A stretch of DNA of 64,000 nt from an uncultured Candidatus Saccharibacteria bacterium (GTDB lineage Bacteria > Patescibacteriota > Minisyncoccia > Ryanbacterales > GWA2-47-10b). The notes beneath the pieces were generated by a model. That model had not been told where the DNA came from and did not search any database. It worked only from the letters and a program-made list of their open reading frames with translations. This document shows, one piece after another, positions 1,397 to 29,334 of this stretch. A program made the translations under genes and the position numbers. Positions within the stretch are counted from its first letter, which is position 1, and every line of letters starts with the position of its first letter. The stretch spans positions 77,743 through 141,742 of the forward strand of contig CAYHJF010000001.1 of assembly GCA_964356915.1 (NCBI GenBank), in the 5' to 3' direction.

Positions 1397-4254
1397 AGTA
1401 CGATATTTACAAGCTTATTACCCACAATAATAATATTCTTCGGTTCTTGCCCATTTATATATTTCTTAATCTGCTCGCTTGAAAGCGCGCGCTCTTTCAT
1501 CTCCTGTTCGGTAATAGTTGCGGCAACTTCAATAATCTCACGCATCTTACCATTAACCTGAATCACGAGTTTGACAGAAACATCATGCGTTAGCGCCTCA
1601 TCGTAAGTTGGCCACATACTCTTATGAATTGAGTCTTTCTCGCCGAGCATCTCAAAAAGCTCGTCAGCGACGTGAGGAGCGAGCGGGGCGAGAAGCTTTA
1701 GAAAATCTTTAAGATCTTTTTTACCAACAATCCGACCACCCTCTTCAAACGTGTTGAGACAAATCATAAGTGCAGAAATCGCCGTATTAAATTGAAGCGA
1801 CTCCATATCTTCACTCACTTTCTTAATTGCCTTTGCAATCGCACGCTCCGCTATCTCATCGGATTCACCATCGATAACGCATTCCTTAAAATCCCATACT
1901 CGGCTCAAAAATCGTACCATGCCCCGAATGCCTGTATCTTGAAAATCTCCTCCCTCCGTCAGCGGTGCCATAAAAGCCAAATACATGCGCAGTGCATCTG
2001 CTCCGTACACACGCAAATAATCGTCGGGGTTTATCACATTGCCACGAGACTTTGACATCTTCGCTCCATCTTTCGTAATAAGTCCATGTGCGCGAAATTG
2101 CTTGATTGGTTCACCGCCAGACTCTTTTGCAAAATCAACAAACCCAAGATCGTGCAGCGCCATCGAAACAAAACGAACGTACAGAAGATGAAGTACTGAA
2201 TGTTCCGCACCACCAATATACGAGTGAACGGGCGCCCATGTGCGAGCACGAGACTCTGATACAAATTCTTTTTTATTACTTGGATCGAGATAACGTAAGT
2301 AATACCACGCAGAATCTAAAAACGTATCTGAAACATCTGTTTCTCGGCGCGCCTTACCTCCACACTTCGGGCACGTCGTTTCATAAAACTCCGGAAAGTT
2401 CGCGAGCGGTGCTTTATCTGTTCCCGTCGGACGAAATTCTTTTACATCAGGTAACAACACAGGCAAATTTTCCTCCTTCTCTGAAATCCATTCTTTACAC
2501 GAGTCACACCAAATCATCGGGATTGGTGGTCCCCAATAACGCTGTCGAGAAATAAGCCAATCACGAAGACGATAATTTGTCTGTTGCTTCCCCTTAACTT
2601 TTTCTGTAATTTTCCATTTTGCTTCTCTCGAACTCATCCCATCAAACTCTCCTGAATTTGTCAGTATGCCATCTCCGGAATATATTTCTCCTAAAACCAA
2701 ACGTCGAAATCCAAGAAGATGATTTTCATCCTCCATTTTTTGCAAAACCTCATCTTTTGTCAGCCACTCGATAGTAAAATTTCCTTTTTCATCATGTTGG
2801 AGATTTTCTTCAACTCGCTCATCTCCTTTCAGCCGAAAATAAAGACTAGTCACCTCAATATTGCGCGCGACATTCTTTGAAAACGCAAAGTAGTGGTGAT
2901 GCATGAGCTCTGACTTTGCCACAAACTCTAGTTGCGTATACCCCGTTTCTTCTTGAATCTCACGGAGTGCTGTTGCTACCTCATCTTCACCCTCTTCACG
3001 CCCCCCACCAATAAACAGCGTCCCGCCAAGTTTTGACCCCCAGTTCAATGTTAAAAATTTCTTATGCTTTGGATCCTCAACAATAGCGACAATACTCCTG
3101 CGATGCTGTTCGTCCGGCATTATCTTCCCTGTCTCTGGCTCAATGACCAACGCAATAGGAAGTTCAAACTTCTTTGCAAATTCAAAATCACGCTCATCGT
3201 GTGCTGGCACTGCCATGATCGCGCCTGTACCATATCCGCCAAGTACATAATCCGCGACCCAAACCGGAATCTGCTTATCAGTCGCAGGATTGATCGCATA
3301 GATACCACTAAAAACCCCTGTTTTTTCTTTTCCGAGAGCCAAACGCTCCTCTTCTTTTCCACCAAGGCTCTTCGTGATGTATGCCCTTACTTCGTCGGGT
3401 GCCTGCCACCCAATATCAAGCCAAAATTTTGCAGTCTCTGGCGAGATAACAAGAAAAGTTGTGCCAAAAAGTGTATCGGGGCGTGTCGTAAATACATCTA
3501 CCGAATGTTTGCCGTCTTCTTGTCCCGGGATACCGGTGAGTGGAAATGTGATAAGAGCACCCTCTGATTTACCGATCCAATTACGCTGAGCAGTTGTAAT
3601 TCGCCCATCCCAATCAATATGATCGAGACCATCTAAAAGTCGTCCGGCGTATTTCGTAATTTTGAAAAACCACTGCTCTAATTCTTTTTGAATAACCTCT
3701 GTTCCACATCGCTCACATTTTCCAGCGATCACCTGTTCATTTGCGAGTACGGTCAAACACTTCGGGCACCAATTGACCGATGCTTTTTTTCGATACGCAA
3801 GCCCCGCCTTAAAAAGCTGAATAAACAGCCACTGTGTCCAGCGATAATATTCGGGGTCATACGTCTCGAGTTTTTCGTCCCATGCAAATGCATTGCCAAT
3901 CTCATGCAACTGACGATAAAAATTTTCCTCAGTGCGTAGAGCAAGTTTTTTTGGATGCTCCCCAATCTTAATGGCGTAATTTTCTGAATTGATACCAAAT
4001 CCATCAAGTCCCATTGGCTGAAACACATCATGTCCCTGCATTCGCTTAAAGCGTCCGTATATATCAACTCCCGTAAATGTGCGCACACCTCCAATATGCA
4101 ACCCCTCCGCGGATGGATAGGGGAACATCATGAGATTATAAAAAGGCTTCTTGGGATTATCTAGATCCGGCTCGTACAAACGGTCTTGCAACCACCGCTC
4201 GCGCCACTTTTTCTCAATCTTTTTAAAATCGTACGCCTTCATGAATTCTTTCAT
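1393..4254 (-). CDS. leuS: leucyl-tRNA synthetase, with an inserted Nudix domain
   Basis: HIGG-type class I motif, TTRPDTLFG editing motif, GTGAIMAVPAHDERDFEFA, NSGEFDGM, RLRDWLISRQRYWG and KMSKS all present; 953 aa; extra ~150 aa carries a Nudix box. Confidence 0.93.
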   Translation of the reverse strand: MKEFMKAYDFKKIEKKWRERWLQDRLYEPDLDNPKKPFYNLMMFPYPSAEGLHIGGVRTFTGVDIYGRFKRMQGHDVFQPMGLDGFGINSENYAIKIGEHPKKLALRTEENFYRQLHEIGNAFAWDEKLETYDPEYYRWTQWLFIQLFKAGLAYRKKASVNWCPKCLTVLANEQVIAGKCERCGTEVIQKELEQWFFKITKYAGRLLDGLDHIDWDGRITTAQRNWIGKSEGALITFPLTGIPGQEDGKHSVDVFTTRPDTLFGTTFLVISPETAKFWLDIGWQAPDEVRAYITKSLGGKEEERLALGKEKTGVFSGIYAINPATDKQIPVWVADYVLGGYGTGAIMAVPAHDERDFEFAKKFELPIALVIEPETGKIMPDEQHRRSIVAIVEDPKHKKFLTLNWGSKLGGTLFIGGGREEGEDEVATALREIQEETGYTQLEFVAKSELMHHHYFAFSKNVARNIEVTSLYFRLKGDERVEENLQHDEKGNFTIEWLTKDEVLQKMEDENHLLGFRRLVLGEIYSGDGILTNSGEFDGMSSREAKWKITEKVKGKQQTNYRLRDWLISRQRYWGPPIPMIWCDSCKEWISEKEENLPVLLPDVKEFRPTGTDKAPLANFPEFYETTCPKCGGKARRETDVSDTFLDSAWYYLRYLDPSNKKEFVSESRARTWAPVHSYIGGAEHSVLHLLYVRFVSMALHDLGFVDFAKESGGEPIKQFRAHGLITKDGAKMSKSRGNVINPDDYLRVYGADALRMYLAFMAPLTEGGDFQDTGIRGMVRFLSRVWDFKECVIDGESDEIAERAIAKAIKKVSEDMESLQFNTAISALMICLNTFEEGGRIVGKKDLKDFLKLLAPLAPHVADELFEMLGEKDSIHKSMWPTYDEALTHDVSVKLVIQVNGKMREIIEVAATITEQEMKERALSSEQIKKYINGQEPKNIIIVGNKLVNIVL

Positions 4255-6051: not shown

Positions 6052-7607
6052 GACTGTACGGTATCAAAAGATGGGAAGAGTGCTACACCACCCTGTATAG
6101 TGACTTTTTCGTCATGCATGACGAATATATCTTTTATCTTTTGTGCGGTACTCGGCATAAACGGCTCGAGAAGAGGAACGGATGCAAGGATATGTGAGGC
6201 AAGATTCCACAGTACTGCGAGCGCCTTTTGTTCGTCAATCTTGATAAGTTTATATGGTTCGTAATCTTGAATATACCCATCGAGTAACGCAAAGAAGCTA
6301 AACAATATTTTTATGGCTTCTGTCAGCTCAGTTACTTCCATAGCGTGGCTATATCGCTCTTCTATTTCTTTATGAAAATATCGATGCAACGTCTCACTGT
6401 CGAGCTCAACGGTCTTCTCGGAAACCTCTTGGCGAAGCTGTCGCTTCAACGGAATTGTCGCGAGAATATCAGCGGGAGGCTTGGCGATACCATCTGGCGC
6501 GTATTTTTGGATCATCGTAAAGACACGCGAGACAAGATTGCCAAGTCCGTGGGCAAGATTTCCTTGATACACGTCTTGAAATCGCTCGAGCGTAAAATCC
6601 CCATCCCCACCAAATGGAATCTCGCGCATAAGAAAATACCGAAACGCATCTACACCGTATGTATCAATGATAGAAAGCGGGTTGATCACATTTCCGATTG
6701 TCTTTGACATCTTTTGCCCGCCAGAAATAATCATCCCGTGTACATAGAGCGCTTTGGGCAATGGAAGATTTGCAGCCATGAGCATCCCCGGCCAAATAAC
6801 CGCATGAAAACGTAGAATATCTTTGCCAACCACATGGAGATTGGCAGGCCACATCGTACTCATGCGCGACTCATCGGATGAACCATATCCTAAAGCCGAG
6901 AGATAGTTGGAAAGCGCGTCCGCCCACACATACATCGTATGCTCTGGATCTCGGGGCACTGGTATCCCCCAACCAATATCTTTTGAAGGGCGAGAAAAAC
7001 TAATATCTTCAACACCGTCAGCTAAAAACGCGAGAACTTCATTCTTGCGAACTTCTGGCAAAACTTGAAAGGCTCCCGACTCAATTGCACTTTTGATGCG
7101 TGAAGCATATTTTGAGAGTCGAAAAAAATAATTCTCCTCTTCTATGACTTCTGGCGCTTGATTGTGATCAGTACACTTTCCATCTACAAGATCTTTTTCT
7201 GTTACAAATGCTTCGTGCCCAATACAGTAAAGGCCTTTGTATGAAGATTTATACAAATCCCCTGACTCCATAAGCTTTTCCCACATCTTTTGCGCGCCCG
7301 GCCAATGATGTTCCTTATCCGCCGTGTAAATAAATCCATCATTGGATGCGTCAAGTCTCTGAAGTAGGTTTTTGAATTCCTCTCTTCGTTCTTCGACAAA
7401 TTTTTCGACGGGCACTCCCGCCTTTTCTGCTGAACGCAAAATCTTTGCCCCATGCTCATCCGTACCTGAAAGAAAAAACGTATCATCTCCCTTGAGGCGA
7501 TGATATCGCGCGCACACATCCGCAATCACATCAGCATACGCATGTCCTAGGTGTGGAGATGCGTTGGCATAATAAATAGGAGTTGTAATGTAAAATGTAC
7601 GGCTCAT
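6048..7607 (-). CDS. metG: methionyl-tRNA synthetase (short form)
   Basis: PIYYANASPHLGHAY (HIGH-type motif), KMSKT motif, 519 aa. Confidence 0.92.
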   Translation of the reverse strand: MSRTFYITTPIYYANASPHLGHAYADVIADVCARYHRLKGDDTFFLSGTDEHGAKILRSAEKAGVPVEKFVEERREEFKNLLQRLDASNDGFIYTADKEHHWPGAQKMWEKLMESGDLYKSSYKGLYCIGHEAFVTEKDLVDGKCTDHNQAPEVIEEENYFFRLSKYASRIKSAIESGAFQVLPEVRKNEVLAFLADGVEDISFSRPSKDIGWGIPVPRDPEHTMYVWADALSNYLSALGYGSSDESRMSTMWPANLHVVGKDILRFHAVIWPGMLMAANLPLPKALYVHGMIISGGQKMSKTIGNVINPLSIIDTYGVDAFRYFLMREIPFGGDGDFTLERFQDVYQGNLAHGLGNLVSRVFTMIQKYAPDGIAKPPADILATIPLKRQLRQEVSEKTVELDSETLHRYFHKEIEERYSHAMEVTELTEAIKILFSFFALLDGYIQDYEPYKLIKIDEQKALAVLWNLASHILASVPLLEPFMPSTAQKIKDIFVMHDEKVTIQGGVALFPSFDTVQS

Positions 7608-7616
7608 ATCGTATTT

Positions 7617-8660
7617 CTATTCTTCTTTTTTGCGCGCTTCCACATCACCCAAAAACTCGATAAGAATAACAGCGAGAGGTACTGCGATAATGATACCGAG
7701 AACCCCCGCGAGCTTGCCGCCAATCATAAGAGCGATAATCGCAAGCAATGGTGGTACACCCACGGTCTTACGGACAACTTGCGGGTAGATAAGGTGGTTT
7801 TCCATTTGTTGCACGATGAAATAAATACCCGCAACCAAAAGTCCTAAGAGCGGCTGTTGGATTGAGGCTACAACGATTGCAGGAATAGCCGCCATGATAG
7901 GACCAAAGTATGGAATCACCTCGAACACCGCGGAAAGGACTGCGAGCAAAAACGCATATCGTACCTGCAAAATCGTAAGTGCGATAAATACAAGCACGCC
8001 GATAATAACTCCGAGTAACATCTGGCCCTGAAGCCATCTACCAATTTTGCGCTGAGAGCGCGTCCACAAGCTTAATACATACGTTTCGTGCTCTTTGGGT
8101 GTCACGATGCGCAGAACATTTGCGATACCATCTTCCTGTACTGCGAGATAAAACGAGATAACAAATATAAATACAAAGGCGAAAACACTTGAAACAATCC
8201 CCGCAGTCGCGCTAAAGACGCCTCCAACCGCACCGCCAACCATCGAATTGACGCGGAGCGCCAAATCATGAAAGGTAGGCGCGATCAAATCAAACGGCAA
8301 CGCAGGAAACTTATCCTGAAGCTGTTCGAATGCCTTTTCAACTAACGTCGGAAGTTGCGCGAAGAAACTGCGAAAATCATTGGCGAGCGGTGGAATCAAA
8401 AAATAAAATATCGAGAGAATACCAAAAATCCCTCCAAGATAAATCAGCAAAACTCCAAGCACGCGCGGGATTTTCCATCGAGTAAGTCCTCGCACGAGCG
8501 GCTCTACTGAAGAAGCAATGACAACGGAGACTAAAATGATAAGCACGATATCTCGAATCGCATAAAGAAACCCGAGCCCTACAACCATGAGTAACAAGCG
8601 CGCAAGTGATCCTGTCGTAATCTGTATTGTTTGTTGCGTCTTACCTGTCATATTATCCAA
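7617..8660 (-). CDS. AI-2E family (PerM/YhhT-like) transporter
   Basis: 347 aa, ~8 TM segments, typical AI-2E topology and size. Confidence 0.7.
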   Translation of the reverse strand: MDNMTGKTQQTIQITTGSLARLLLMVVGLGFLYAIRDIVLIILVSVVIASSVEPLVRGLTRWKIPRVLGVLLIYLGGIFGILSIFYFLIPPLANDFRSFFAQLPTLVEKAFEQLQDKFPALPFDLIAPTFHDLALRVNSMVGGAVGGVFSATAGIVSSVFAFVFIFVISFYLAVQEDGIANVLRIVTPKEHETYVLSLWTRSQRKIGRWLQGQMLLGVIIGVLVFIALTILQVRYAFLLAVLSAVFEVIPYFGPIMAAIPAIVVASIQQPLLGLLVAGIYFIVQQMENHLIYPQVVRKTVGVPPLLAIIALMIGGKLAGVLGIIIAVPLAVILIEFLGDVEARKKEE

Positions 8661-9986: not shown

Positions 9987-11285
9987 TTAACGGAGCTTTT
10001 TTGAGAAAAAATCCGAGAGCTCCAAAGACCCAACACGCTCCTGCTCACCCGAGTCACGATCGCGCACAGTTACGGTATCATCTTCAAGCGTCTGGTAGTC
10101 AACGGTCACACACCACGGAGTACCGATTTCATCTTGCCTTCTATACCGTTTGCCCACATTACCAATATCGTCCCACACCACTGACCCAATAGTCTTTTTG
10201 AGCTCGCCATATATCTCACGCGCCTTAGCAACGAGGTGCTCTTTATTTGAAGCGAGTGGAAAAACTGCAACCTTAATTGGAGCAAGCGTAGGCTTGAGAC
10301 GCAGTACAACTCTTTTGGACCCACCTAATTCGTCTTCGTCATACGCGGAGAGTAAGACCGCAAGCACTGTGCGGTCAACACCAAGCGATGGCTCAATAAC
10401 ATGCGGGATAAATGTTTCGTTCGCCTCTTCGTCGCGATATGAGAGATCTTTTGAACTATATTCTGAATGCTTTGTGAGGTCGTAATTTGTACGATATGCG
10501 AGTCCATACAGCTCCTTTTTGCCAAACGGATATTCAAACTCAAAATCAATCGTACGCTTTGAATAGTGCGCGCGATCTCCTGCCGCTACCTCAAGCTCGC
10601 TTACTGACTCTTTTGTAAGACCAATTGAGTCACACCACCTGAGCATCTCGCTACGAAAATGTTCAAAATGCACCTCCCACTCTCCCTCGCGAACAAAATA
10701 TTCGATCTCCATTTGCTCGAACTCGCGAGAACGAAATACAAAATCGCGTGGCGTAATTTCATTTCGAAATGCCTTGCCGATCTGCGCGATACCAAAAGGA
10801 AGTTTTGGGTGAAACGAATCAATCACATTTTTGAAATTCACAAAAATCCCCTGCGCGGTCTCGGGACGAAGATAGGAAGTATTCGAAGAATCCTCAACTG
10901 CGCCCACCTGCGTCTTAAACATCATATTAAATTGGCGAGGCTCTGTAAGTGCGCCTTCGCATTCGGGACACGTCGTCCCTTCTATCTGATCAGCACGAAA
11001 TCGTCTTTTACACTTTGTGCACTCAACCATTGGATCTGCAAACCCAGCGACATGTCCTGACGCTTCCCACACTCGCGCATTCATCAAGATTGCCGCATCG
11101 AGCCCAAACATATCTTCACGCTCCAAAACAAATTGTTTCCACCAAAGAGACTTGATGTTATTTTTGAGCGCCACGCCAAGCGGACCATAGTCCCACGTAC
11201 CCGCAAGTCCTCCGTAAACTTCAGACCCCGGAAAGATAAACCCTCGGCGCTTTGCAAGCGAAATGATTTGTTCAAGCGATGTCAT
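9987..11285 (-). CDS. glyS: glycyl-tRNA synthetase (eukaryote/archaeal-type alpha2)
   Basis: N-terminus RRGFIFPGSEVYGGLAGTWDYGPLG typical of dimeric GlyRS; class II motifs. Confidence 0.9.
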   Translation of the reverse strand: MTSLEQIISLAKRRGFIFPGSEVYGGLAGTWDYGPLGVALKNNIKSLWWKQFVLEREDMFGLDAAILMNARVWEASGHVAGFADPMVECTKCKRRFRADQIEGTTCPECEGALTEPRQFNMMFKTQVGAVEDSSNTSYLRPETAQGIFVNFKNVIDSFHPKLPFGIAQIGKAFRNEITPRDFVFRSREFEQMEIEYFVREGEWEVHFEHFRSEMLRWCDSIGLTKESVSELEVAAGDRAHYSKRTIDFEFEYPFGKKELYGLAYRTNYDLTKHSEYSSKDLSYRDEEANETFIPHVIEPSLGVDRTVLAVLLSAYDEDELGGSKRVVLRLKPTLAPIKVAVFPLASNKEHLVAKAREIYGELKKTIGSVVWDDIGNVGKRYRRQDEIGTPWCVTVDYQTLEDDTVTVRDRDSGEQERVGSLELSDFFSKKLR

Positions 11286-11318
11286 AGTAGTGACCCTATC
11301 ATACGAAAACCTCTCACG

Positions 11319-20417: not shown

Positions 20418-20858
20418 ATGCCCACACTGAATAAAAAAGTTCATTTTAACTATGAAGTTCTCGAAACCTTCGAAGCGGGTCTCGAGCTTCTTGGCTTTGA
20501 GGTTAAGTCCGTCACTAAAGGAAATGCGCATTTAGAAGGCGCTCGCGTTCTTATTCGCGGAGATGAGGCATTTGTCGTTGGGCTTTCTATCCCCCCATAC
20601 CAACAAAACAATACTCCAAAAGACTACGAACCGGATCGTACACGGAAATTACTCCTCCATAAAAAAGAAATCACATACTTAACAGGCAAAGCAAGCGAGC
20701 GGGGCTTGACATTAGTGCCAATTAAGTTGTATAATAAGGGCCGACGAATTAAGCTCTCTTTTGGTATCGCTCGCGGCAAAAAACTTTACGACAAACGCGA
20801 AACAATCAAAAAACGCGAGGTTGATCGCAAGATCGAACGAGAACTTAAAAACTCCTAA
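20418..20858 (+). CDS. smpB: SsrA-binding protein SmpB
   Basis: N-terminus KKVHFNYEVLETFEAGLELLGFEVKSV and C-terminal basic tail; 146 aa. Confidence 0.9.
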   Translation: MPTLNKKVHFNYEVLETFEAGLELLGFEVKSVTKGNAHLEGARVLIRGDEAFVVGLSIPPYQQNNTPKDYEPDRTRKLLLHKKEITYLTGKASERGLTLVPIKLYNKGRRIKLSFGIARGKKLYDKRETIKKREVDRKIERELKNS

Positions 20859-20914
20859 CTAGATTTTATACGTGGCTTTCGCAGAAATTCTCTCGATGTA
20901 TCGAGAGAATTTCT

Positions 20915-21269
20915 GGGGACGCTAGGCCTCGACGAGGAATCGTTTTCATTGAAAATCAGGCAAGAGCACGCTCGCTCATCTCTTTCAAAACTGTGTGAGC
21001 ATAATAAGTGCAAACTTATTTAACCGCCAACCGGCGATGGCATTTGCCTAGTCGCGGCGTTCTCTCACTTCGCTAGACGAAGTGAGCATCGGTCCGCAAT
21101 AGTCAGGTGAGCGGAATACCGGTGTTATAATCCCAGACTAGCGTGATGTGATGCTCGGTAGCATCGCGCGAAACTAATCGAGCAACTTCTTAAGATTCGT
21201 CTTGAGTACGCCTGTATAAATTTTTAGTGAGTCCATCTTCGCATGTGGGTTCGATTCCCACCGTCTCCA
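20915..21269 (+). ncRNA. ssrA: tmRNA (SsrA), ~355 nt
   Basis: Lies directly downstream of smpB. The 5' GGGGACG pairs with 3' CGUCUCC to form the acceptor stem. UCGACGAGG near the 5' end is tmRNA-like. The T-arm is GGGUUCGAUUCCCAC. An internal tag ORF begins GCA AAC (21010-21051) and reads ANLFNRQPAMAFA*. Confidence 0.7.
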
Positions 21270-21288
21270 CTGACAACACGACCCGCTT

Positions 21289-21318
21289 TTATGGCGGGTT
21301 TTGTGTTGGCAGTTGTCG
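21289..21318 (+). terminator. intrinsic terminator after tmRNA
   Basis: acccgc-ttttatg-gcgggt hairpin followed by TTTTGTGTT. Confidence 0.55.
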
Positions 21319-21387
21319 AATGAGTTGGGAATCGAACGCATGCCGGGGGCATGCGCGGCTCCGCACTAAGCGAAGCGCAGAAGGAGG

Positions 21388-21404
21388 ATTCCCACCGTCT
21401 CCAC
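21388..21404 (+). repeat. direct repeat of the tmRNA 3' terminal 17 nt (candidate att core)
   Basis: ATTCCCACCGTCTCCAC at 21254-21270 is repeated exactly at 21388-21404; an inverted T-arm fragment (gggaatcgaac) lies between the copies. Confidence 0.6.
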
Positions 21405-21583
21405 AACAAAACAGAATCGCCCTTGTGGCGATTTTTGTATTCTTGCAAAAATATTTAAATAAAGAACCACCCAAGTAGTGACCCCCGCCCCACAGGACGC
21501 CTCGCGACCTTGTGGGGCGATTCTGTTTTTGTATAAAAAACCGCCCTCTCACAAGAGAACGCGGCATGTAACTATTAAATTTT

Positions 21584-22315
21584 CTAAAACGAATACGTGA
21601 GACTTCCGCCAAATGTATACCACGTCTTTCGCTCATCGTGGACGGTAAGCGGAAAAATAACCTGTAACGTCGGTAAATCAATAAAGACCGATGGAACGAT
21701 CTCCCAATGCAACCAAAAATCGTAATGTCCAAGAAACCCCGAATCAAGGCCTCGATGAGTGCCTGAATCATAGAGCCAACCAAATTTATTGAGTAAAGAA
21801 CATGCGGGAAAGAACTCCCATTGATGCTCTACGCCAAACAAGGCATGAACTCCATTGAGTTCTTCTCCGCCCTGCTCAATCGGAATATGCCCCTCTACAT
21901 TTAGGAAGGGTACAAGACGCTGCGTTCTTGTAAGCGCGAATTCTCTTTTCACTTCTCCATACGGGCGCGCGGCGTCTTCGCCGCCAAAACTATCTTGATC
22001 GGAAAGGTCGAGATATCCGGCACCTACATTAACCCGAAACTCATGCCATTCTTTTCCCCAGCCGATTGAATAGTCGAGCGCAAAACGAGAATGACGCAAT
22101 GACGGCTCCGTACCATTAAGCCCGAGCGACCACCATACATTTGCATAAAACCCCCTTGGAAAATCTAGATGCAAGTTCGATTGCATAACGGGATCGTTAT
22201 ATACAACGATCCCTTCTGCAAGAACATACTTGCTCTTTGCTGACACAGAAAATGTATGAGCTTGGACAGAATGTGTAGCACATACAAGCAACCCTGCGGT
22301 CAACGCCCACTTCAC
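21584..22315 (-). CDS. outer-membrane beta-barrel-like protein (MipA/OmpV-like)
   Basis: Signal peptide (cleavage VQA|HT); aromatic-rich alternating pattern; C-terminal ...SLTYSF with terminal Phe, as in OMP beta-barrel signatures. Confidence 0.5.
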   Translation of the reverse strand: MKWALTAGLLVCATHSVQAHTFSVSAKSKYVLAEGIVVYNDPVMQSNLHLDFPRGFYANVWWSLGLNGTEPSLRHSRFALDYSIGWGKEWHEFRVNVGAGYLDLSDQDSFGGEDAARPYGEVKREFALTRTQRLVPFLNVEGHIPIEQGGEELNGVHALFGVEHQWEFFPACSLLNKFGWLYDSGTHRGLDSGFLGHYDFWLHWEIVPSVFIDLPTLQVIFPLTVHDERKTWYTFGGSLTYSF

Positions 22316-22412
22316 TCCATGTACCTCGCAATCGTTTTTTGAAGAACCATGTCGAACAACATACTACTTAAAAAAATAAACTGTGTCAAAAATACAGAAT
22401 CAAATATCGTAA

Positions 22413-23144
22413 CTACAAAATAAGATTTGCCTTCTTAAATTCTTCACGCACAAACGAATACCAGTTTTCATATCCTTTGTCACTCGGGTGAAATATATCA
22501 GCCGCATAATATACATACGGCTCTTCTTTGTATGGATCACGAGTACGCTGATGCCCACCATAGATATCAACGTAATGCGCGCTCGCATCTTGAGTCGCGG
22601 ATATGAAAATATTTCGAACGCGGCGCGTGCGATATGAAAAAAACCATCGCGTACCAAGCGGCAATAACTTCGATGTTCCCACATCTCCACTTGTGACAAG
22701 AAAAACATTTTTACTTATACCTGATGTAAGCTTCAATACATTTTGAATATCTAAAGAAAGTTGATCAAGATTTGTAAATCGTACAATATCATTCCCCCCG
22801 ATATGAATGACTACGAGATCATAAGATTCGTTTTTTATTTTTTCTAGCACTGTCACGAGCTGGTGCGTTTTCATTCCATTCACTCCCTTGTTTACAATTG
22901 AAGCTTGAGGAAAATCAGTGGCTAACCTCCCTGCCATTGAAAACATACCTTCTGAAGCGCCCGTGCCAACTGCCGTACTATCTCCAATTACTAAAATTCG
23001 AAATGTCGCTTCTGAATTTACGCGCGCATACGGCACCGCACGATGTGCAAGCTCTGTTCCAATGAGAATAAGTCTGCGTGTATTCAACGCCTGCACAAAA
23101 ATAAAAACTACGAGCACCGCCAAAAGAAAAAACATATATTTCAT
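22413..23144 (-). CDS. SGNH/GDSL family hydrolase (lipase/esterase), secreted or membrane-anchored
   Basis: Block I VIGDSTAVG, block III HIGGNDI, block V DIFHP; N-terminal signal/TM. Confidence 0.7.
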   Translation of the reverse strand: MKYMFFLLAVLVVFIFVQALNTRRLILIGTELAHRAVPYARVNSEATFRILVIGDSTAVGTGASEGMFSMAGRLATDFPQASIVNKGVNGMKTHQLVTVLEKIKNESYDLVVIHIGGNDIVRFTNLDQLSLDIQNVLKLTSGISKNVFLVTSGDVGTSKLLPLGTRWFFSYRTRRVRNIFISATQDASAHYVDIYGGHQRTRDPYKEEPYVYYAADIFHPSDKGYENWYSFVREEFKKANLIL

Positions 23145-23177
23145 AAACCTAAAAAAATAAAGTAAGCGCCCAACCTA

Positions 23178-23861
23178 CTACTGTACAGACAGCGTCGCTA
23201 CTATGCCTGACGCACCCTTAATCACCGCGCCATCAACATCACGCATCTCACTTACACTACATACAAACTCCCCTTTAGTATCAAGTGAGGCATCAAATTC
23301 AACAACGATTTCATTTGCCAATACTGTCCCAAATCGAGGCCCTGAAGTACCCGTCTTAATTTCAAAATCTTTTTTAAACCCGCTCGGACCTGCTATACCC
23401 CCAACGATCGTTGCCGACCCCTCCAAATGTTCGGCAGTAATTTTACAGTACAGATAACTTTTCGAACTTCCCTGATTTTTAACACCAATCGAACCCGTAA
23501 GAAGAATATCGTTTTGAGTAAAACGATCCATCTGATCCTTAATCTTATCGTAATATGTAACGGGATTGATCTTGAATTTGAAATAATGATTAAGCCCAAA
23601 GAGCACGAGTGGGGCGGCGACCACTGCCACTCCGGTATATTTTAAAATATTACTCGCACCAGAACCTGATGATGAGCCTGACTCACTTTTTACTTTATCG
23701 ATCTCCTGCTTAAGATTTTCTCCTCTCTCCTTTAAATCGCGTACGGTATCAATCTTACTTTTCACCTGTTCCGCTTTTTGAATCCGAAGAAAATTCCTCA
23801 CAAAAAAACCTCCTCGGTCTTTTTTTTCTTCCTCTTGTGATTTTTCGTTTTGCTCATCCAT
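23178..23861 (-). CDS. hypothetical bitopic membrane protein (charged coiled-coil N-terminus, TM, C-terminal globular domain)
   Basis: 227 aa; K/E-rich N-terminus, Ser/Gly linker, TM VAVVAAPLVLFGL. Confidence 0.4.
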   Translation of the reverse strand: MDEQNEKSQEEEKKDRGGFFVRNFLRIQKAEQVKSKIDTVRDLKERGENLKQEIDKVKSESGSSSGSGASNILKYTGVAVVAAPLVLFGLNHYFKFKINPVTYYDKIKDQMDRFTQNDILLTGSIGVKNQGSSKSYLYCKITAEHLEGSATIVGGIAGPSGFKKDFEIKTGTSGPRFGTVLANEIVVEFDASLDTKGEFVCSVSEMRDVDGAVIKGASGIVATLSVQ

Positions 23862-23882
23862 TAGAGTTTTAAAAATTCGATA

Positions 23883-24335
23883 CTAAAAAACTTTTTTACC
23901 TGACTCATTCCAACGCTTGAACAAATACCCCGCAACCGCAAGATACATAATCGCAGTAACAATAAATATCATCTTACTCCCCAGAATCGACATGCCAATA
24001 TTATTACCTGTAAGCCCTGTCAGTCCAAGATTGATTCCTGAAACAACGCTGATCAAAAACGCGATCAAATCGGGCTGATCTTTTTTACCAAATAAAACCT
24101 TATTTCCCGTAACCCATCGATAGAGAAGATATCCGGATACTGCGCCAGAGATAAGCCACGAAAGTGTTAACACCAAGCGCACAAGGCCAAAAAACATTGG
24201 CACTGGTAAAATCGCAAGAAGGACTGGCCTCCCACCAATCAATAGTGCAACCGCTGCGATTACAAGTCGCGCCTCTGACCACAAAAAACTATATCGCTCG
24301 AGCTGATCTGGATGAGAATATTCTTTAATATTCAT
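23883..24335 (-). CDS. hypothetical 4-TM membrane protein
   Basis: 150 aa, four hydrophobic helices. Confidence 0.4.
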   Translation of the reverse strand: MNIKEYSHPDQLERYSFLWSEARLVIAAVALLIGGRPVLLAILPVPMFFGLVRLVLTLSWLISGAVSGYLLYRWVTGNKVLFGKKDQPDLIAFLISVVSGINLGLTGLTGNNIGMSILGSKMIFIVTAIMYLAVAGYLFKRWNESGKKVF

Positions 24336-24437
24336 AAAAAATGACTGCTAGCTAATATATATTTAGAATACCACGGAGAAGAAAACTCAAGTAGTAAAGC
24401 ATGGAATTTTCTTTCATTCATCAGTATACTGAGCCTA

Positions 24438-25532
24438 ATGTTGGACTACGGAAACACGCGTGTCGGAATATTCTTTACAGGCCTCTTTTTTCTTTTTCTG
24501 GGAGGCATTGTTATCTATCGCCCCCAACTCATGGCAACGCCAACACCGCCGAAATCATATATCCCAGCTCCTCCAATCATAGAAACCGCGCCAATCTCAA
24601 AAACTGAGACGCCAAAAACAGAGACACCTCACCCACCTAAATCTCCTGCAACGCACGCTACAGAAACTACATCAACAACAACGGTAGCCACTACATCACC
24701 AACAACAAGCACGTCTACTCCTCTTGTTACAACAGAACTTCCTCAAGTCACTCTGAAGACTCAACCTGAAACCGTAATAACTGGTGGACTTCAATTTTCA
24801 TCACAAGTCTGGCAAGGAGTTATTCGCATCACAGGAAGCGTTGTTTTTTCACCATGGACAACTCTAACTATCAAACCTGGAACAAAAATTATCTTTGAGA
24901 AAAAACCTGATATCGCGGGCACGGACTGGACCGATAATGCAGATGCGTACACCAAAGATCACAACGACCCGACAGGACGAAGCGGATATCGTCTATCGCA
25001 TTACAGCATCACGGGCACGATCACCGCGATCGGCACAAAAGAAGAACCAATCATCTTTACGTCTGCCGAAGAAAAACCTGACTATGCGGATTGGGACCAA
25101 CTCATACTCTTAGAAGGTAGTATTTTAGATCATGTCGAGATCTCGTATGCACACAATGGCATTCTCACATATGGTGACAACGTCACGATAAAGAATAGTA
25201 AAATTCAAAGTTCGCTTTGGAGCTGTATCGATCTTTTCTCAACAGGAAACATTATTGAAAATAATGAAATTTTTCACTGTTGGCACCAGGCAATCGGCAT
25301 TAAAAAACAAGGACAAAATACTATCAAAGATAATCTCATTCATGATGTCTGGCTCGGGATTAATTGTGAAAATGGCGCAAACCCAACCATCACCGGCAAC
25401 GCATTTCGCGCAGCCCCTCAAAATAATACTTGCCAAGTTGGAGGAGATAATACAATCCTTGAAGCACCTCCTGACTCGCTTGGTGGCACATATGGTGGGG
25501 TACTAATATATCCGACACAAAAACAAAACTAA
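24438..25532 (+). CDS. secreted protein with Thr/Pro-rich linker and right-handed parallel beta-helix repeats
   Basis: N-terminal TM/signal; PTPPKSYIPAPP...TTSTTTVATTSPTTSTSTP linker; repeated N-x-I/V-x-N units (NVTIKNSKIQ, NIIENNEIFH, NTIKDNLIHD, NPTITGNAF) typical of PbH1 repeats. Confidence 0.6.
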   Translation: MLDYGNTRVGIFFTGLFFLFLGGIVIYRPQLMATPTPPKSYIPAPPIIETAPISKTETPKTETPHPPKSPATHATETTSTTTVATTSPTTSTSTPLVTTELPQVTLKTQPETVITGGLQFSSQVWQGVIRITGSVVFSPWTTLTIKPGTKIIFEKKPDIAGTDWTDNADAYTKDHNDPTGRSGYRLSHYSITGTITAIGTKEEPIIFTSAEEKPDYADWDQLILLEGSILDHVEISYAHNGILTYGDNVTIKNSKIQSSLWSCIDLFSTGNIIENNEIFHCWHQAIGIKKQGQNTIKDNLIHDVWLGINCENGANPTITGNAFRAAPQNNTCQVGGDNTILEAPPDSLGGTYGGVLIYPTQKQN

Positions 25533-25542
25533 ATAAAAAAGC

Positions 25543-25566
25543 TCTCTCAGAAGAGCTTTTTTATTA
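25543..25566 (+). terminator. intrinsic terminator
   Basis: aaaaagctctctcagaagagctttttt: perfect hairpin plus T-run. Confidence 0.7.
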
Positions 25567-25580
25567 CTACAAACAAGCTA

Positions 25581-25608
25581 TTGACAAAAGTGTGTTTTAG
25601 TGTATAGT
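25581..25608 (+). promoter_or_regulatory. near-consensus sigma70-type promoter
   Basis: TTGACA (25581-25586), 16-nt spacer, TATAGT (25603-25608); GAGGAG SD at 25635-25640, 9 nt before the ATG at 25650. Confidence 0.6.
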
Positions 25609-25649
25609 GGTCGCAACGTTCATTCCCAGAAGAAGAGGAGACTTTACCC

Positions 25650-25913
25650 ATGTCACGTCGCAACAGACACCGCCCCTGCGCTCACGGATGCGGGCACTTG
25701 GTCGCCTCAGGCGACCGCCACGCCACGGGCCACTGCCCGCCCAAGCGTGGTCGCCGTTCGCGCGACAAGCATCACTGGATGGGTGACGGCAGCATCGTCG
25801 GCATGAAGGAGATCGGCGTCGGCGCGGATGTCGGCACGCGTGGCGTTCCGGTCACCGGTGTCGGTGGCGGAAAGGCCAAAAGCCACCGCGTCGCCAAAGC
25901 CAAGACCGCCTGA
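25650..25913 (+). CDS. small basic Cys/His-rich protein encoded in GC-rich foreign DNA
   Basis: 87-aa ORF (MSRRNRHRPCAHGCGHL...HCPP...), ~65% GC versus ~45% host; bounded by a consensus promoter plus SD upstream and hairpins downstream. Confidence 0.4.
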   Translation: MSRRNRHRPCAHGCGHLVASGDRHATGHCPPKRGRRSRDKHHWMGDGSIVGMKEIGVGADVGTRGVPVTGVGGGKAKSHRVAKAKTA

Positions 25914-25994
25914 GACCAACCGCCTCGGGACGGCTTCGCATCGTGCGGAGCCGTCCCACCCCCCACTCTTCATCTTTATAGATATCTTTGTTTG

Positions 25995-26027
25995 AAAACC
26001 TCGTCCCAGACGAGGTCGTTTTTTTAA
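25995..26027 (+). terminator. intrinsic terminator
   Basis: cctcgtc-ccaga-cgaggtcg hairpin followed by TTTTTTT; a second hairpin (gcccct/aggggc) at 26040-26058. Confidence 0.6.
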
Positions 26028-26055
26028 TTATTAAAATAAAAAGCCCCTTTAGGGG

Positions 26056-26653
26056 CTACTTACGAATACGTGTGAGAAATTCGAGCGATTCTAAACGCAT
26101 CCGTTGTTGATATGAAACTGGTAAACCAAGGGCGTGATGCGAGAGTGCTGCAACGGAATATGCTAAAAATTGATGCGGGACGTTACCTTCAACAATCCTA
26201 CGCATATGAGTCTCGCTATCAAGGCCACGATGAAACGTCGTTGAGTATGAGTCTGCAATAATACATCCTATGAACTCAACCCTATCAAAGGGCGTTAGAC
26301 GCTCTGCGCCTCCAAAGCGATCTACAGCATCAAACGCGAGAGCAATGCCTTCGGCAAAACGCTCTCTCTTCGCCTGTCATAAGATCACGCAGTCGCTCAT
26401 CGACCTCTTCATTAAATATGCCAGCCCGTGCAGGATGAATGAGATACCACTCATTTGGCACAAAAGATTCAGCAATCTCAACGGGCCCCGAGAATCGCAA
26501 AAATGCATTTAATGCATACACGATACCTTCAAGATATTGTTGCTGCTCGTTTTGCACTCGAAACTCACGCATCCGAGCATCAACAACAGCATTAAAGCCC
26601 CTTACGCTTTCTGAGAGATTCGCTTCTGATATTTCAGGTGTGGCGAGTAGCAC
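26056..26653 (-). pseudogene. frameshifted gene of unknown function (two frames joinable at a CT-repeat)
   Basis: A 107-aa ORF ends at TGA 26330. A second reading frame, offset by one nucleotide from the first, is open from 26376 down to the stop at 26056 and encodes a protein-like sequence (...AKRERFAEGIALAFDAVDRFGG...LTRIRK*). The frames overlap at gctctctctt (26361-26370). Confidence 0.45.
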
Positions 26654-26790
26654 GTAACCTCCATCAAAGAACGTTTACTATAAAATATACTAACTTATGT
26701 TAAAAGTCAATGATTTATATGCGCCCAACTATCTCCCCCTCCGTGCATCATTCTTTCTAACCTTACTCACTATTCAGCCCCCAAAATGTA

Positions 26791-26819
26791 TTGACTTTTA
26801 GTAAAAATAGTGTTATAAT
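26791..26819 (+). promoter_or_regulatory. consensus sigma70-type promoter
   Basis: TTGACT (26791-26796), 17-nt spacer, TATAAT (26814-26819); AGGAGG SD at 26857-26862, 6 nt before the ATG at 26869. Confidence 0.65.
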
Positions 26820-26868
26820 GAATCCAGAAACGTGGCTACAAAAACGCCACCAAAATAGGAGGACCTTG

Positions 26869-27495
26869 ATGAAGACTTGGATGCTGCTGATGGCGCTCGT
26901 GCTCGTACCCTGCTGGACAAACGCCGACGAAGGCGGCCGCGCCGAACCTACATGGATGGAAGAAGTGCGTGGTGCAACGCCGATGCCGAAGATCTGCAAG
27001 CTCATGCAGGACAGCGACATCGAAGGCGTCGAGCCTCATGTCGCCAAGAAGGTTGCGGAAGGTCTCCTCACAGAGATCCTGCGGGCCGACAAGATCGTCG
27101 ATCGCATCTGCGACATGAGCGGTGGCGAGCAGATCGACTTCGCTGACGGCGAGATCGTCATCGCCGAAATCGGAGAGTGGCTGACTCTCGCCAACCTCCA
27201 GCCGAGCGACATCGGTGTATCAACCGCGGAATTGCGCGAACTGCTCAAGACGAACATCGCTCGCAACATCGCGCGATACCGCGAGCTCCACGCCAAAAGC
27301 GAGTGCACGAACGCCGACTGCTCCACTTTCTACACGGGGATGGCCCAAGGAGCGCTCGATCGCCTGCACTTCACCAAGGAAGACGTCGGACTCACTCAAG
27401 ATGACGTAGTCATCTTCGAGCTGACGACTACCACAACGACAACCGCCATGACGGCCAGCAGCACGACTTCGACTACGCTCGTCTCGTCCAACTGA
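26869..27495 (+). CDS. secreted protein with poly-Thr C-terminal tail, encoded in GC-rich foreign DNA
   Basis: 208 aa from the ATG after the SD; signal peptide MKTWMLLMALVLVPCWTNA|DEGG; C-terminus ELTTTTTTTAMTASSTTSTTLVSSN; ~60% GC; the track ORF 26791.. extends upstream in-frame, but the SD supports 26869. Confidence 0.5.
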   Translation: MKTWMLLMALVLVPCWTNADEGGRAEPTWMEEVRGATPMPKICKLMQDSDIEGVEPHVAKKVAEGLLTEILRADKIVDRICDMSGGEQIDFADGEIVIAEIGEWLTLANLQPSDIGVSTAELRELLKTNIARNIARYRELHAKSECTNADCSTFYTGMAQGALDRLHFTKEDVGLTQDDVVIFELTTTTTTTAMTASSTTSTTLVSSN

Positions 27496-27526
27496 CCACG
27501 ACGACACAACAAGGTTTGAGCAAACC

Positions 27527-27560
27527 TGATCAGCTCCCCTGCAACATTCCGTTGCAGGGA
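27527..27560 (+). terminator. intrinsic terminator
   Basis: cccctgcaac-attcc-gttgcaggg hairpin followed by TTTTTTAT. Confidence 0.65.
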
Positions 27561-27659
27561 TCTTTTTTATAAATATATTCGAAAAAAATAAAAACCGGAG
27601 AATATCCTCCGGCGATCTACGTGATTTCTTATACTGAAATTACGAAGTTACTTTGCAAC

Positions 27660-28220
27660 TCATGCACTGACATCGACAAATCTTCCTCTCGTAGCATCAA
27701 GCGCACGCTCATACAGATGATCTGCAATACCTCCAAGGGCACGTTCAGTTCGTCGATATGAGCCCGTCGGAGCGATTCCTCCATGAGAGATATTGGAATG
27801 TATTTCAAGAATCCTTCGATCTATAGCCCATCCAACAAATGGCAGTCGATCTACGTCAGCACCATAAAGAGAAACGCCCCGATTAGGCAACAACTCTCTC
27901 AAACTTCTAACAGATTGTTCTGAAGTGATAATTTCAATCGATACCCCTCTCGCTACTGCCTGCTCAAAAGCTCTCTTAAGCCTATCTACTTGGTAAAGCA
28001 CGTGATAGCACCCATAGGAACTACATACGATAACGATCGTTCGACGTGATTGCAAAATATCGGCAGAAAGCGCTGAAAGCGCGGCTTGGGGTGTTTCTCG
28101 ATACCCAAAAACCAAACGACTCTCCCATAACACTCGTACGATACCGACACATATACCTAATACACCTATGACCATAAGGAAAATGAGGGTCATTGGAACC
28201 TCCGTGATCAGATATACCAC
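27660..28220 (-). CDS. hypothetical membrane-anchored protein (possibly DUF218/SanA-like)
   Basis: 186 aa; N-terminal TM; weak resemblance to YdcF/SanA-type fold. Confidence 0.35.
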   Translation of the reverse strand: MVYLITEVPMTLIFLMVIGVLGICVGIVRVLWESRLVFGYRETPQAALSALSADILQSRRTIVIVCSSYGCYHVLYQVDRLKRAFEQAVARGVSIEIITSEQSVRSLRELLPNRGVSLYGADVDRLPFVGWAIDRRILEIHSNISHGGIAPTGSYRRTERALGGIADHLYERALDATRGRFVDVSA

Positions 28221-28275
28221 GCAACTTTGAGGCTAGGCAAGCAATCTTGACTAAACACCCATTTCTCTCTACACT

Positions 28276-28887
28276 ATGGAAACATTGATACAAAAGCCTC
28301 GCATTAACCATCAAATACGAGTCCCGGAAGTTCGGGTCATTGGAGAGGACGGCTCAAACCTCGGGGTTCAGCCAACCGCCAACGCCCTTGAACTCGCACT
28401 GGCTTCAGGCCTTGATCTTATTGAGATCTCGCCAACCGCACAGCCACCGGTAGTTCGTATCATGGATCGCGGCAAATATCAGTATCAACTCGATAAAGAA
28501 GCTCGGCAGGCACGTAAAAAATCGAAAGAAATTGAAATCCGCGGCATTCGAGTACGCCTTGGAACAGGCCTCAACGACCTGATTCTAAAAGCAAAAAAGG
28601 CTGAAGAGTTCCTATCGGATGGAGACCGAGTACAGATCCAGATGACGCTTCGTGGCCGAGAGAAAGGGATCAATAAGGATTTCGTTCACGAACGTCTTAA
28701 AAAATTATTGGAAGCGATAACCGTACCGTTCAAAGTAGCCGAAGCACCTAAAAAAGGACCGCGAGGACTTCTTATCACAATCGAACCAGACCACAATGGC
28801 AAAAACAAACAAATCAGTACTGAAAAGAATCAAGGTGACCAAAACGGGCAAAATCATGAAGCGAAGCCCGCACCAGAATCACTTTAG
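28276..28887 (+). CDS. infC: translation initiation factor IF-3 with C-terminal extension
   Basis: INHQIRVPEVRVIGEDGSNLGV and IMDRGKYQYQ motifs; 203 aa; low-complexity tail overlaps the rpmI start. Confidence 0.85.
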   Translation: METLIQKPRINHQIRVPEVRVIGEDGSNLGVQPTANALELALASGLDLIEISPTAQPPVVRIMDRGKYQYQLDKEARQARKKSKEIEIRGIRVRLGTGLNDLILKAKKAEEFLSDGDRVQIQMTLRGREKGINKDFVHERLKKLLEAITVPFKVAEAPKKGPRGLLITIEPDHNGKNKQISTEKNQGDQNGQNHEAKPAPESL

Positions 28888-28984
28888 TGCAAAACAGCGT
28901 CGCTCAAAGCAAATCGCCCGTAAAGGGTGGAAGGAATTTCAAATGGGCCAGGCTATTAAAAATCGTTATCTCCCGAACACCTAA
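28796..28984 (+). CDS. rpmI: ribosomal protein L35
   Basis: MAKTNKSVLKRIKVTKTGKIMKR...; 62 aa; canonical infC-rpmI-rplT order. Confidence 0.85.
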   Translation: MAKTNKSVLKRIKVTKTGKIMKRSPHQNHFSAKQRRSKQIARKGWKEFQMGQAIKNRYLPNT

Positions 28985-28986
28985 CC

Positions 28987-29334
28987 ATGACACGCGTTAA
29001 ACGAGGTACTATCGCGACAAAACGTCGTCGCAACGTCCTCAAACAAACTAAAGGATTCCGCTGGCAACGTAGCAAGAAAGAGCGCGCAGCAAAGGAAGCG
29101 CTCCTCCATGCATATACTCACTCATTCCAAGACCGCCGCAAAAAGAAAAGGGTATTTCGAAAGCAATGGAATGTCACGATTAATGCCGCATCTCGCCAAA
29201 ACGGAGTTTCATACAGCAAGTTGATCGCAGCACTCAAAAAGATGCATATCGATCTCGACAGAAAGATTCTCTCAATTCTTGCTAAGAAACATCCTGAGGT
29301 ATTTGAAAAGATACTCAAAGAAGCCGTCAAATAA
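28987..29334 (+). CDS. rplT: ribosomal protein L20
   Basis: MTRVKRGTIATKRRRNVLKQTKGF...; 115 aa. Confidence 0.9.
   Translation: MTRVKRGTIATKRRRNVLKQTKGFRWQRSKKERAAKEALLHAYTHSFQDRRKKKRVFRKQWNVTINAASRQNGVSYSKLIAALKKMHIDLDRKILSILAKKHPEVFEKILKEAVK

Follow-up and report, generated by a model that had tools for sequence, protein, structure and literature searches.

Why should a gene end twice? The question is raised by ssrA, the transfer-messenger RNA (tmRNA) gene of a Patescibacteria (Parcubacteria) metagenome-assembled genome from Hainich groundwater, in a 64-kb stretch of DNA that we analysed whole and call the window. The last 18 nt of ssrA recur exactly 134 nt downstream, and the insert thus marked out belongs to a family that occupies exactly the T-loop site of ssrA in other Parcubacteria. 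We lean towards reading it as a miniature unit with no recombinase of its own, whose folded module would be its attachment (att) site and which would depend on an enzyme encoded elsewhere. The features at issue, in order, are these:

20915-21270 (+): ssrA, the tmRNA gene (ARAGORN; Rfam RF00023, 88.2 bits, full length)
21253-21270 (+): repeat copy 1, GATTCCCACCGTCTCCAC; the functional gene end, probably insert-borne (attL-like junction)
21271-21311 (+): T1, a long terminator hairpin with a T-rich 3' arm (terminator scan; fold -21.3 kcal/mol, z-score -5.3)
21312-21325 (+): spacer with the motif GAATGAG, also present in related locus L234
21326-21396 (+): structured module, a three-way junction (covariance model, folds, covariation)
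21326-21340: inverted T-arm copy, 15 nt, 93% complementary to 21246-21260
21326-21333 and 21387-21394: closing stem of the module, TGGGAATC with GATTCCCA; the 5' strand is the inverted T-arm copy
21337-21355: hairpin H1
21358-21376: hairpin H2
21387-21404 (+): repeat copy 2, GATTCCCACCGTCTCCAC; probably the displaced original ssrA 3' end (attR-like), continuous with its flank (CCAC/AAC)
21411-21438 (+): T2, a terminator of the A-tract/stem/T-tract kind, in register with T1 (-11.5 kcal/mol, z-score -3.5)
21486-21531 (+): T3, hairpin (21486-21519) plus T-run (-24.8 kcal/mol, z-score -3.8)

The tmRNA gene is a standard one-piece gene, lies directly 3' of smpB (20418-20858) and encodes the tag peptide ANLFNRQPAMAFA. 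Its acceptor stem is paired (5' GGGGACG with CGTCTCC, including a G3:U70 pair), and the 3' strand of that stem is repeat copy 1. The repeat runs from T-loop position 4 to the discriminator plus one C, with its left boundary at the slash in TTC/GATT. The duplication had been pointed out in a sequence-only reading of this DNA, which put it at 17 nt; it is real and one base longer. The copies enclose 116 nt, free of genes and open reading frames (ORFs) and made up of T1 and the 71-nt module. That reading had also seen an inverted T-loop copy between the repeats, which is present about 2 nt from where it was placed (motif GGGAATCGAAC at 21327-21337), and three terminator hairpins, all of which stand, the first with its coordinates shifted.

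The repeat is confined to this spot. No third copy of the 18-mer occurs in the window at up to 4 mismatches, and none in 21405-29000 even at up to 6; a distant second att copy, whose existence had been raised, is absent as far as infC and from the window, even in degenerate form. None of 100 shuffled controls held two 18-mer matches. Five contigs, assembled independently from one groundwater well, agree at every base of 20859-21600, which excludes an assembly artefact. The similarity of the copies continues in register through the next 37 nt (55 nt, 73%) because a terminator hairpin follows each copy; the two 134-nt units show no relation past those 55 nt.

T1, T2 and T3 are predicted to be intrinsic terminators (a G+C-rich hairpin followed by a T-run), and all three are among the 11 sites that a terminator scan found in 2 kb, against 2.7 expected. 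T1 stands directly after the tmRNA end, within the insert. T2, of the kind that seems typical of the clade, may be the original ssrA terminator: the ssrA terminators of relatives resemble T2 in 33 and T1 in 12 of 48 cases, which is weak evidence.

Two other accounts of the enclosed DNA were rejected. The first, that it is what decay left of a duplicated tmRNA 3' body, fails because local alignments are no better than shuffles; and a group I intron in the T-loop does not fit a gene that is complete without splicing and is followed at copy 1 by T1. Rfam searches returned only tmRNA, both in this region of the window, even at E-values up to 10, and in L087, L089, L094 and L096 at gathering thresholds.

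The folded module and its family

The inverted T-arm copy pairs with the start of copy 2, and this closing stem encloses H1 and H2. The window's module folds at -31.7 kcal/mol on the plus strand (z-score -3.5) and -36.9 kcal/mol on the minus strand (z-score -5.8), and its folds as DNA are also significant. Every module of the family folds into the same three-way junction, a closing stem GGGAATY/RATTCCC plus H1 and H2. Stem sequences vary between lineages and pairing is kept: the H1 arms read GCATGCC/GGCATGC in the window, GGAGTGCC/GGCACTCC in L216b, GGGAATTTT/AAAATTCCC in L234 and CGGAAACC/GGTTTCCG in L168. At the closing stem, the Y of the inverted motif and the first base of copy 2 vary in concert: C:G in the window and L118, T:A in L168 and L234.

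We built a covariance model from L118, L216b, L231 and L234 only, leaving the window out. Run on the 64-kb window, it gave one match, 21326-21396 (+), at 31.1 bits (E-value 8.9e-6); run on 0.85 Mb of related loci, it matched only beside ssrA (L094, the first L216 unit and a partial module in L087). In the model-fitted alignment 89.6% of the cells were paired, against 70% in shuffles (0/500) and 30-55% in controls with the pairing partner slid. Compensatory changes on both sides were seen at 11 of the 19 pairs, and at all 7 pairs of H2. The module matches no Rfam family. It was also considered as a dispersed repeat and rejected as such, with one copy in the window and every family member at ssrA.

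Terminators flank the module on both sides, T1 before it and T2 after it, which argues for a role at the DNA level. In L216b, L094 and L096 the closing stem and copy 2 have decayed and the hairpins persist, which argues that this role serves the element, not the host. Where copy 2 has decayed in these three, copy 1 alone completes the tmRNA.

The lineages compared came from two sources. The exact SmpB protein of the window was found on contigs from Hainich well H41, labelled Patescibacteria group bacterium at NCBI, and the nearest relatives have SmpB proteins 74-80% identical; the contigs of 11 relatives formed the synteny set. A metagenome scan with an 18-mer from the tmRNA tag region added about 50 further ssrA loci of this group. 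An SmpB search of genome contigs yielded, among the matches listed, only distant relatives (at most 57% identity), of no use for synteny.

At least eight other lineages have the layout of this insert downstream of ssrA. All short inserts have their parts in one order: ssrA end; terminator or A/T-rich stretch; short spacer; GGGAATYGAAC (T-loop and T-stem in reverse complement); H1; H2; second ssrA end. The second end lies at +130 in L118, +141 in L231/232, +142 in L234-236 (20 nt exact), +155 in L168 (28 nt exact) and +185 in L198 (24 nt exact), so that insert size, with the window included, keeps to a narrow 130-185 bp. Across the family the repeat block measures 16-28 nt and stops at the gene end or slightly beyond. 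L087/088/210 have the second copy at +432, with an 84-aa GIY-YIG ORF between the copies, and L094, L096 and L211/216 are degenerate versions with a decayed second copy. Depending on the lineage, copy 2 is thus anything from perfect to decayed, which is what a displaced fragment would show. Its flank CCACAA is common to several relatives. A conserved promoter after copy 2 in L231, L234 and L094 was considered and rejected, since in L234 this DNA is a hairpin with a T-run, a terminator resembling T2 of the window. The module is missing from about half of the close lineages and from sister genomes of carriers.

Sister genomes give filled and empty alleles of the same site. In the clade whose ssrA abuts infC, L166 and L226 are empty, with a single ssrA end, a 23-nt spacer and the infC leader; their filled sisters carry 155 bp (L168) and 185 bp (L198) more at exactly that point. 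The sequence to the right of copy 2 in L168 and L198 is the native flank of L166 and L226, so copy 2 is the original end, and copy 1 with what follows it is insert sequence.

One locus carries two units. In L216 (10925-11010 and 13290-13375), and also in L211, an identical 86-nt direct repeat consisting of ssrA end, terminator, spacer, inverted T-arm motif and H1 5' arm flanks 2.36 kb of DNA with genes for two proteins, an NTP-transferase/AAA_33 kinase and a histidine phosphatase, so a pair of terminator-plus-module units can have cargo between them. The L216 breakpoint falls in the loop of H1, which is also the hairpin interrupted by the GIY-YIG ORF of L087.

Origin of the insert

On the reading that we favour, the two 18-nt copies would be the junctions, left and right, of a gene-less 134-bp insertion at a site running from the T-loop to the 3' end of ssrA. 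The insert would have brought a replacement gene end (copy 1), a strong terminator of its own (T1) and the 71-nt module, and the original end (copy 2) with T2 and T3 would have been pushed 134 nt downstream, where it would now be a non-functional fragment. Insertion would have been by site-specific recombination at the ssrA T-arm, with a recombinase encoded elsewhere and the module as the attachment site of the element. The element would be a self-contained miniature unit, like a cis-mobilizable element or an empty cassette, and not debris. The empty site would then read ...GGGTTCGATTCCCACCGTCTCCACAACAAAACAGAATCG... and the circular junction ...GCGCAGAAGGAGGATTCCCACCGTCTCCACTGACAACACGACC....

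An att-type target duplication at ssrA had been proposed from the sequence, and that part of the proposal is supported: the repeat anatomy fits, and sister genomes differ precisely by the presence or absence of inserts laid out in the same way. The accompanying remark that an integrase gene is absent also agrees with our searches, since none was detected between ssrA and infC in the window (Pfam, tblastn). A tblastn search of low sensitivity, with XerD and gamma-delta resolvase as queries, gave no match in the window or the related ssrA loci.

Several findings weigh against this reading. Precomputed Pfam lists and the tblastn search show no recombinase gene in the window, nor any at 10 kb or less from ssrA in about 14 annotated lineages; no circular or excised form of the insert was found, and three gapped patterns for the module and repeat on phage- or plasmid-like contigs had 0 matches in IMG/VR. 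Copy 2 of each lineage matches that lineage's own tmRNA, which calls for gene conversion or for a recent insertion per lineage. The alignment used to count covariation was fitted to the model and leans towards structure. The empty site is seen in a sister clade only, the nearest SmpB to that of the window lineage being 80% identical; empty alleles could also come from deletion between the direct repeats, although the unit is discrete either way. A comparison with tRNA genes was uninformative, as the related loci sampled for duplicated 3' ends hold only seven tRNAs.

A more specific proposal, made by analogy and held only tentatively, is that the module is a folded single-strand attachment site, like integron attC or the attP(+) hairpin of CTXphi, used by a host recombinase in trans. 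Equally doubtful is the wider possibility that the stem rebuilds the ssrA T-arm duplex, and that a hitherto undescribed recombinase-less cassette-insertion system in Parcubacteria seeds the hypervariable region between ssrA and infC. On both sides of the junction the inverted arm has the sequence of the target's bottom strand (TGGGAATC/GAAC), and the top strand matches only to the right of the junction. Against an attC-like site stand the single module per locus (two in L216), the lack of a right-side integron core and the failure to find a recombinase.

The insert might instead be the remnant of a larger integrase-bearing island, in which an internal deletion left the att junctions and short arms. 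The repeat anatomy is the classic one for islands (PMC4383910), the interval downstream is hypervariable, the two-gene cargo of L216/L211 lies between two terminator-plus-module units, and one viral contig has an integrase adjoining the same 18-mer. Random independent deletions, however, would not give the same order of parts and nearly the same size (130-185 bp) in at least six lineages; the hairpins are near-perfect and covarying, as if maintained, not decaying; and an integrase-bearing version is missing from about 60 related ssrA loci. We consider such a remnant improbable, and the old or decayed island first suggested for this locus gives way to an insert from a recurrent family, whose fold is conserved and covarying.

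The viral contig, L105 of IMG/VR, carries a tyrosine-recombinase-like ORF (6905-7603) that ends 60 nt before a tmRNA 3' fragment with the identical 18-mer (7663-7680). This block appears to act as an attachment core for an integrase-bearing virus of another host. Among the other plain 18-mer matches in IMG/VR, phage tRNA-like genes or tmRNA genes of other hosts predominate.

Small GIY-YIG genes (about 80-95 aa) adjoin the tmRNA gene, on its strand, in at least 13 related lineages. They lie downstream of ssrA in L225, L213, L162, L148, L154 and L169, upstream of it in L191, L095, L203 and L094, and upstream of smpB in L096; those of L087 and L185 are at 11060-11299 and 2899-3159 (reoriented, ssrA on the plus strand). 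The L185 cassette is an insertion relative to sister genomes. They have the look of homing-type endonuclease genes, free-standing and aimed at the ssrA locus. The GIY-YIG ORF of L087 was tried as the origin of the repeat and rejected: the next 54 nt match the 3' half of the L231 module (43/54), which means that a module was already there and lost its 5' half to the ORF.

Slightly less probable again than an island remnant is that the repeat is a by-product of double-strand-break repair driven by these clustered genes. A break in the T-loop would be followed by copying of a donor allele, and re-annealing through the donor's second ssrA end would duplicate the gene end. The abundance of such ORFs beside ssrA, the one between the repeat copies in L087 and the constant left boundary in the T-loop, which could be the cleavage position, all speak for this. 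They are countered by the secondary nature of the L087 insertion, by cassettes in L185 and others that were inserted without any repeat, and by the absence of a GIY-YIG gene from the window; the inverted T-arm copy and the covarying hairpins would also go unexplained.

It is quite unlikely that the module is a functional structured RNA or regulatory element under selection, such as a tRNA-like processing signal or decoy or a back-up terminator, with the repeat needed for pairing or recognition. Folds are significant on both strands (z-scores of -3.5 plus and -5.8 minus), covariation is strong, and copy 2 tracks the tmRNA end of each lineage. A conserved host function nevertheless fits poorly with terminators on either side, the lack of an Rfam match, absence from about half of the close lineages and from carriers' sister genomes, and the decay of copy 2 and the closing stem in L216b, L094 and L096 with hairpins kept. 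Mismatches (10 A.C against 5 G.T) do not clearly favour either strand as the one that folds.

A simple local tandem duplication of the ssrA 3' end and terminator by slippage or unequal exchange, with no mobile element, is largely refuted and highly improbable: copy 1 plus T1 aligns in register with copy 2 plus T2 (55 nt, 73%) and T2 and T3 share a duplicated 3' arm, but the 134-nt units are unrelated past 55 nt, the insert has no similarity to the tmRNA body, the module is foreign, structured and homologous to those of other lineages, and the same event with the same content would have to recur in many lineages.

The ssrA-infC interval

All 11 relatives share one backbone, with ileS-PPIase-argS on one side, then smpB-ssrA, and infC-rplT-(Zip)-NUDIX beyond a variable interval. 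That interval measures 0.1-9 kb and differs in gene content in every lineage, and in a more distant clade ssrA directly abuts infC; it is a genuine plasticity hot spot. In the window it contains:

21542-21561 (-): convergent terminator of a minus-strand 243-aa gene, at the start of the lineage-specific gene block
21584-28220: hypervariable filling, outside the repeat-bounded segment
21584-22315: protein earlier called OMP-like, no Pfam match
22413-23144: GDSL/SGNH hydrolase (Pfam)
24438-25532: beta-helix protein (Pfam)
28276-28887: infC, the right-hand border

The filling holds four minus-strand genes (the GDSL hydrolase among them), a beta-helix gene, and G+C-rich ORFs. The sequence-only reading had described about 7 kb of accessory character beyond the repeat. 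The SGNH hydrolase and the beta-helix protein are borne out, the OMP-like label finds no match in Pfam, and the interval is indeed hypervariable among relatives that share the backbone; the repeat itself bounds 134 nt only, with no gene. Of the accessory proteins of the window, only the beta-helix protein has a homologue in the relatives' loci (L091, beside infC). Elsewhere the filling consists of a GIY-YIG gene and CarboxypepD_reg (L087), peptidase M19 and CopC (L089), an isochorismatase/HAD/PRT/PfkB set (L092), or Obg and others (L094, L095, L234).

Between the beta-helix gene and infC, G+C rises to 56-59% at 25500-25999 and 27000-27499, against a background of about 43%. These stretches hold ORFs of 87 aa (25650-25913) and 234 aa (26791-27495) that lack a Pfam match, and the G+C-rich segment is probably a separate foreign insertion. 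Just past the 87-aa ORF, at 25933-25953 (-), lies a second copy of H2 (CGGCTCCGCACnAnGCGAAGC) with the same 7-bp stem and the same C.A mismatch in inverted orientation; as many matches were found in 0/100 shuffles. It may be the remnant of another module at the edge of the segment.

The terminators to the right of the insert are themselves related. The 5' arm of T2 (21408-21422) pairs perfectly over 15 nt with the 3' arm of T3 (21515-21529), and the 3' arm of T2 is a shortened near-copy of that of T3, a pattern that suggests an older terminator split or partly duplicated. Over 46 nt, the T3 region (21485-21530) shares 91% identity with a hairpin of L096 (6308-6352) found past two ORFs, 1.4 kb downstream of ssrA; T3 may be a conserved right-hand flank of the insertion site.

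Upstream of ssrA, the smpB coding sequence contains a perfect sigma-70 consensus (12/12; TTGACA, 18 nt, TATAAT) at 20706-20735 (+), 180 nt before the gene, and a 23-nt inverted repeat (87%; 20875-20922) bridges the gap between smpB and ssrA and reaches 8 nt into the tmRNA. The former may be the promoter of ssrA, the latter a hairpin in the leader or one for processing. Within some tmRNA genes (L026 10742-10812 (-), L066 3580-3650 (-), L158, L189, L196, L224, L123) a motif AATCGAAC, in Clostridia GGGGGAATC, lies 55-85 nt upstream of the T-arm and is partly complementary to the T-arm region. We considered AATCGAAC, about 85 nt upstream of the T-arm, as a relative of the module and judged it unrelated, as it ignores the T-loop sequence of its lineage.

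Comparison with known systems

That elements insert at tmRNA genes and regenerate the gene end is textbook knowledge, and E. coli CP4-57 is an example of an element at ssrA. We know of no prior description of an insert such as this one; a literature search turned up no account of a 130-185-bp gene-less insert with a covarying three-way junction found only at the ssrA T-loop across the Candidate Phyla Radiation. The insert offers a handle on how reduced genomes acquire and shuffle accessory genes beside ssrA. It also carries a warning for annotation, since island finders that pair a tmRNA gene with a displaced fragment would call a 134-bp “island” here.

In the tRNA- and tmRNA-gene islands catalogued by Islander, tyrosine integrases are at work, the target gene is regenerated and a displaced 3' fragment is left (PMC4383910). 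The window resembles them in a target regenerated by the element, a displaced 3' fragment that forms a direct repeat, and an identity block from the loop to the gene end. It differs in that the copies enclose 116 nt with no gene, no integrase is nearby and the insert is a conserved folded unit.

The ssrA islands of Dehalococcoides use a serine recombinase, DsiB, and share with the window a mid-T-loop boundary and a repeat of about 20 nt (18 nt here) (PMC3146451). In both there is a region of high plasticity downstream of ssrA, and some of the Dehalococcoides units have no integration genes of their own. The window, by contrast, has no DsiB/DsiA-type module and no tandem ssrA repeats, and no resolvase or serine-recombinase match was found in it or the related loci. 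Where Dehalococcoides has a 15-bp linear motif upstream of the right-hand repeat, the window has a covarying three-way junction.

Cis-mobilizable elements (CIMEs) are kilobases in size. They are att-flanked, lack recombination genes and are described as derivatives of integrative and conjugative or integrative and mobilizable elements (PMC5704250, PMC7563491). Borders of att-type repeats, the lack of a recombinase and a presumed dependence on one in trans are common ground; the unit here is 130-185 bp, with no parent element known. Miniature inverted-repeat transposable elements and small palindromic repeats are similarly small, gene-less and foldable, with short inverted ends. Unlike those elements, ours is present in a single copy per 64 kb, all family members occupy one site, and the flank is 16-28 nt of gene sequence instead of a short target-site duplication.

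The closest parallels to the fold are sites recombined as single strands. The folded site of CTXphi is partly unpaired, which the inverted arm in the window resembles, and the core consensus of integron attC sites is RYYYAAC/GTTRRRY. In CTXphi attP(+), two inverted attP sites pair within the strand, and host XerCD recombines the folded single-stranded DNA (PMC4246890, PMC4792948). As in attC and CTXphi, a direct copy of the target core is joined to the native flank and has an inverted copy 50-100 nt upstream of it, with which it can pair to rebuild the target duplex; the spacer keeps its structure but not its sequence, and no recombinase gene is present in cis. The inverse pairing of core with core in attC has its counterpart in GGGAATY/RATTCCC, with its C:G to T:A change and the covariation of H1 and H2. 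Unlike attC, ATCGAAC fits the consensus at 6 of 7 positions and the right-hand GTT is missing; there is no attI or cassette array, and no integron integrase or tyrosine recombinase was found in these searches. Unlike the CTXphi-like integrative mobile elements exploiting Xer, the target is the ssrA T-arm and not dif, and there is no single-stranded DNA replicon. If the module does turn out to be a folded attachment site on which an enzyme acts in trans, integron attC and the Xer-exploiting phages would be joined by a third example.

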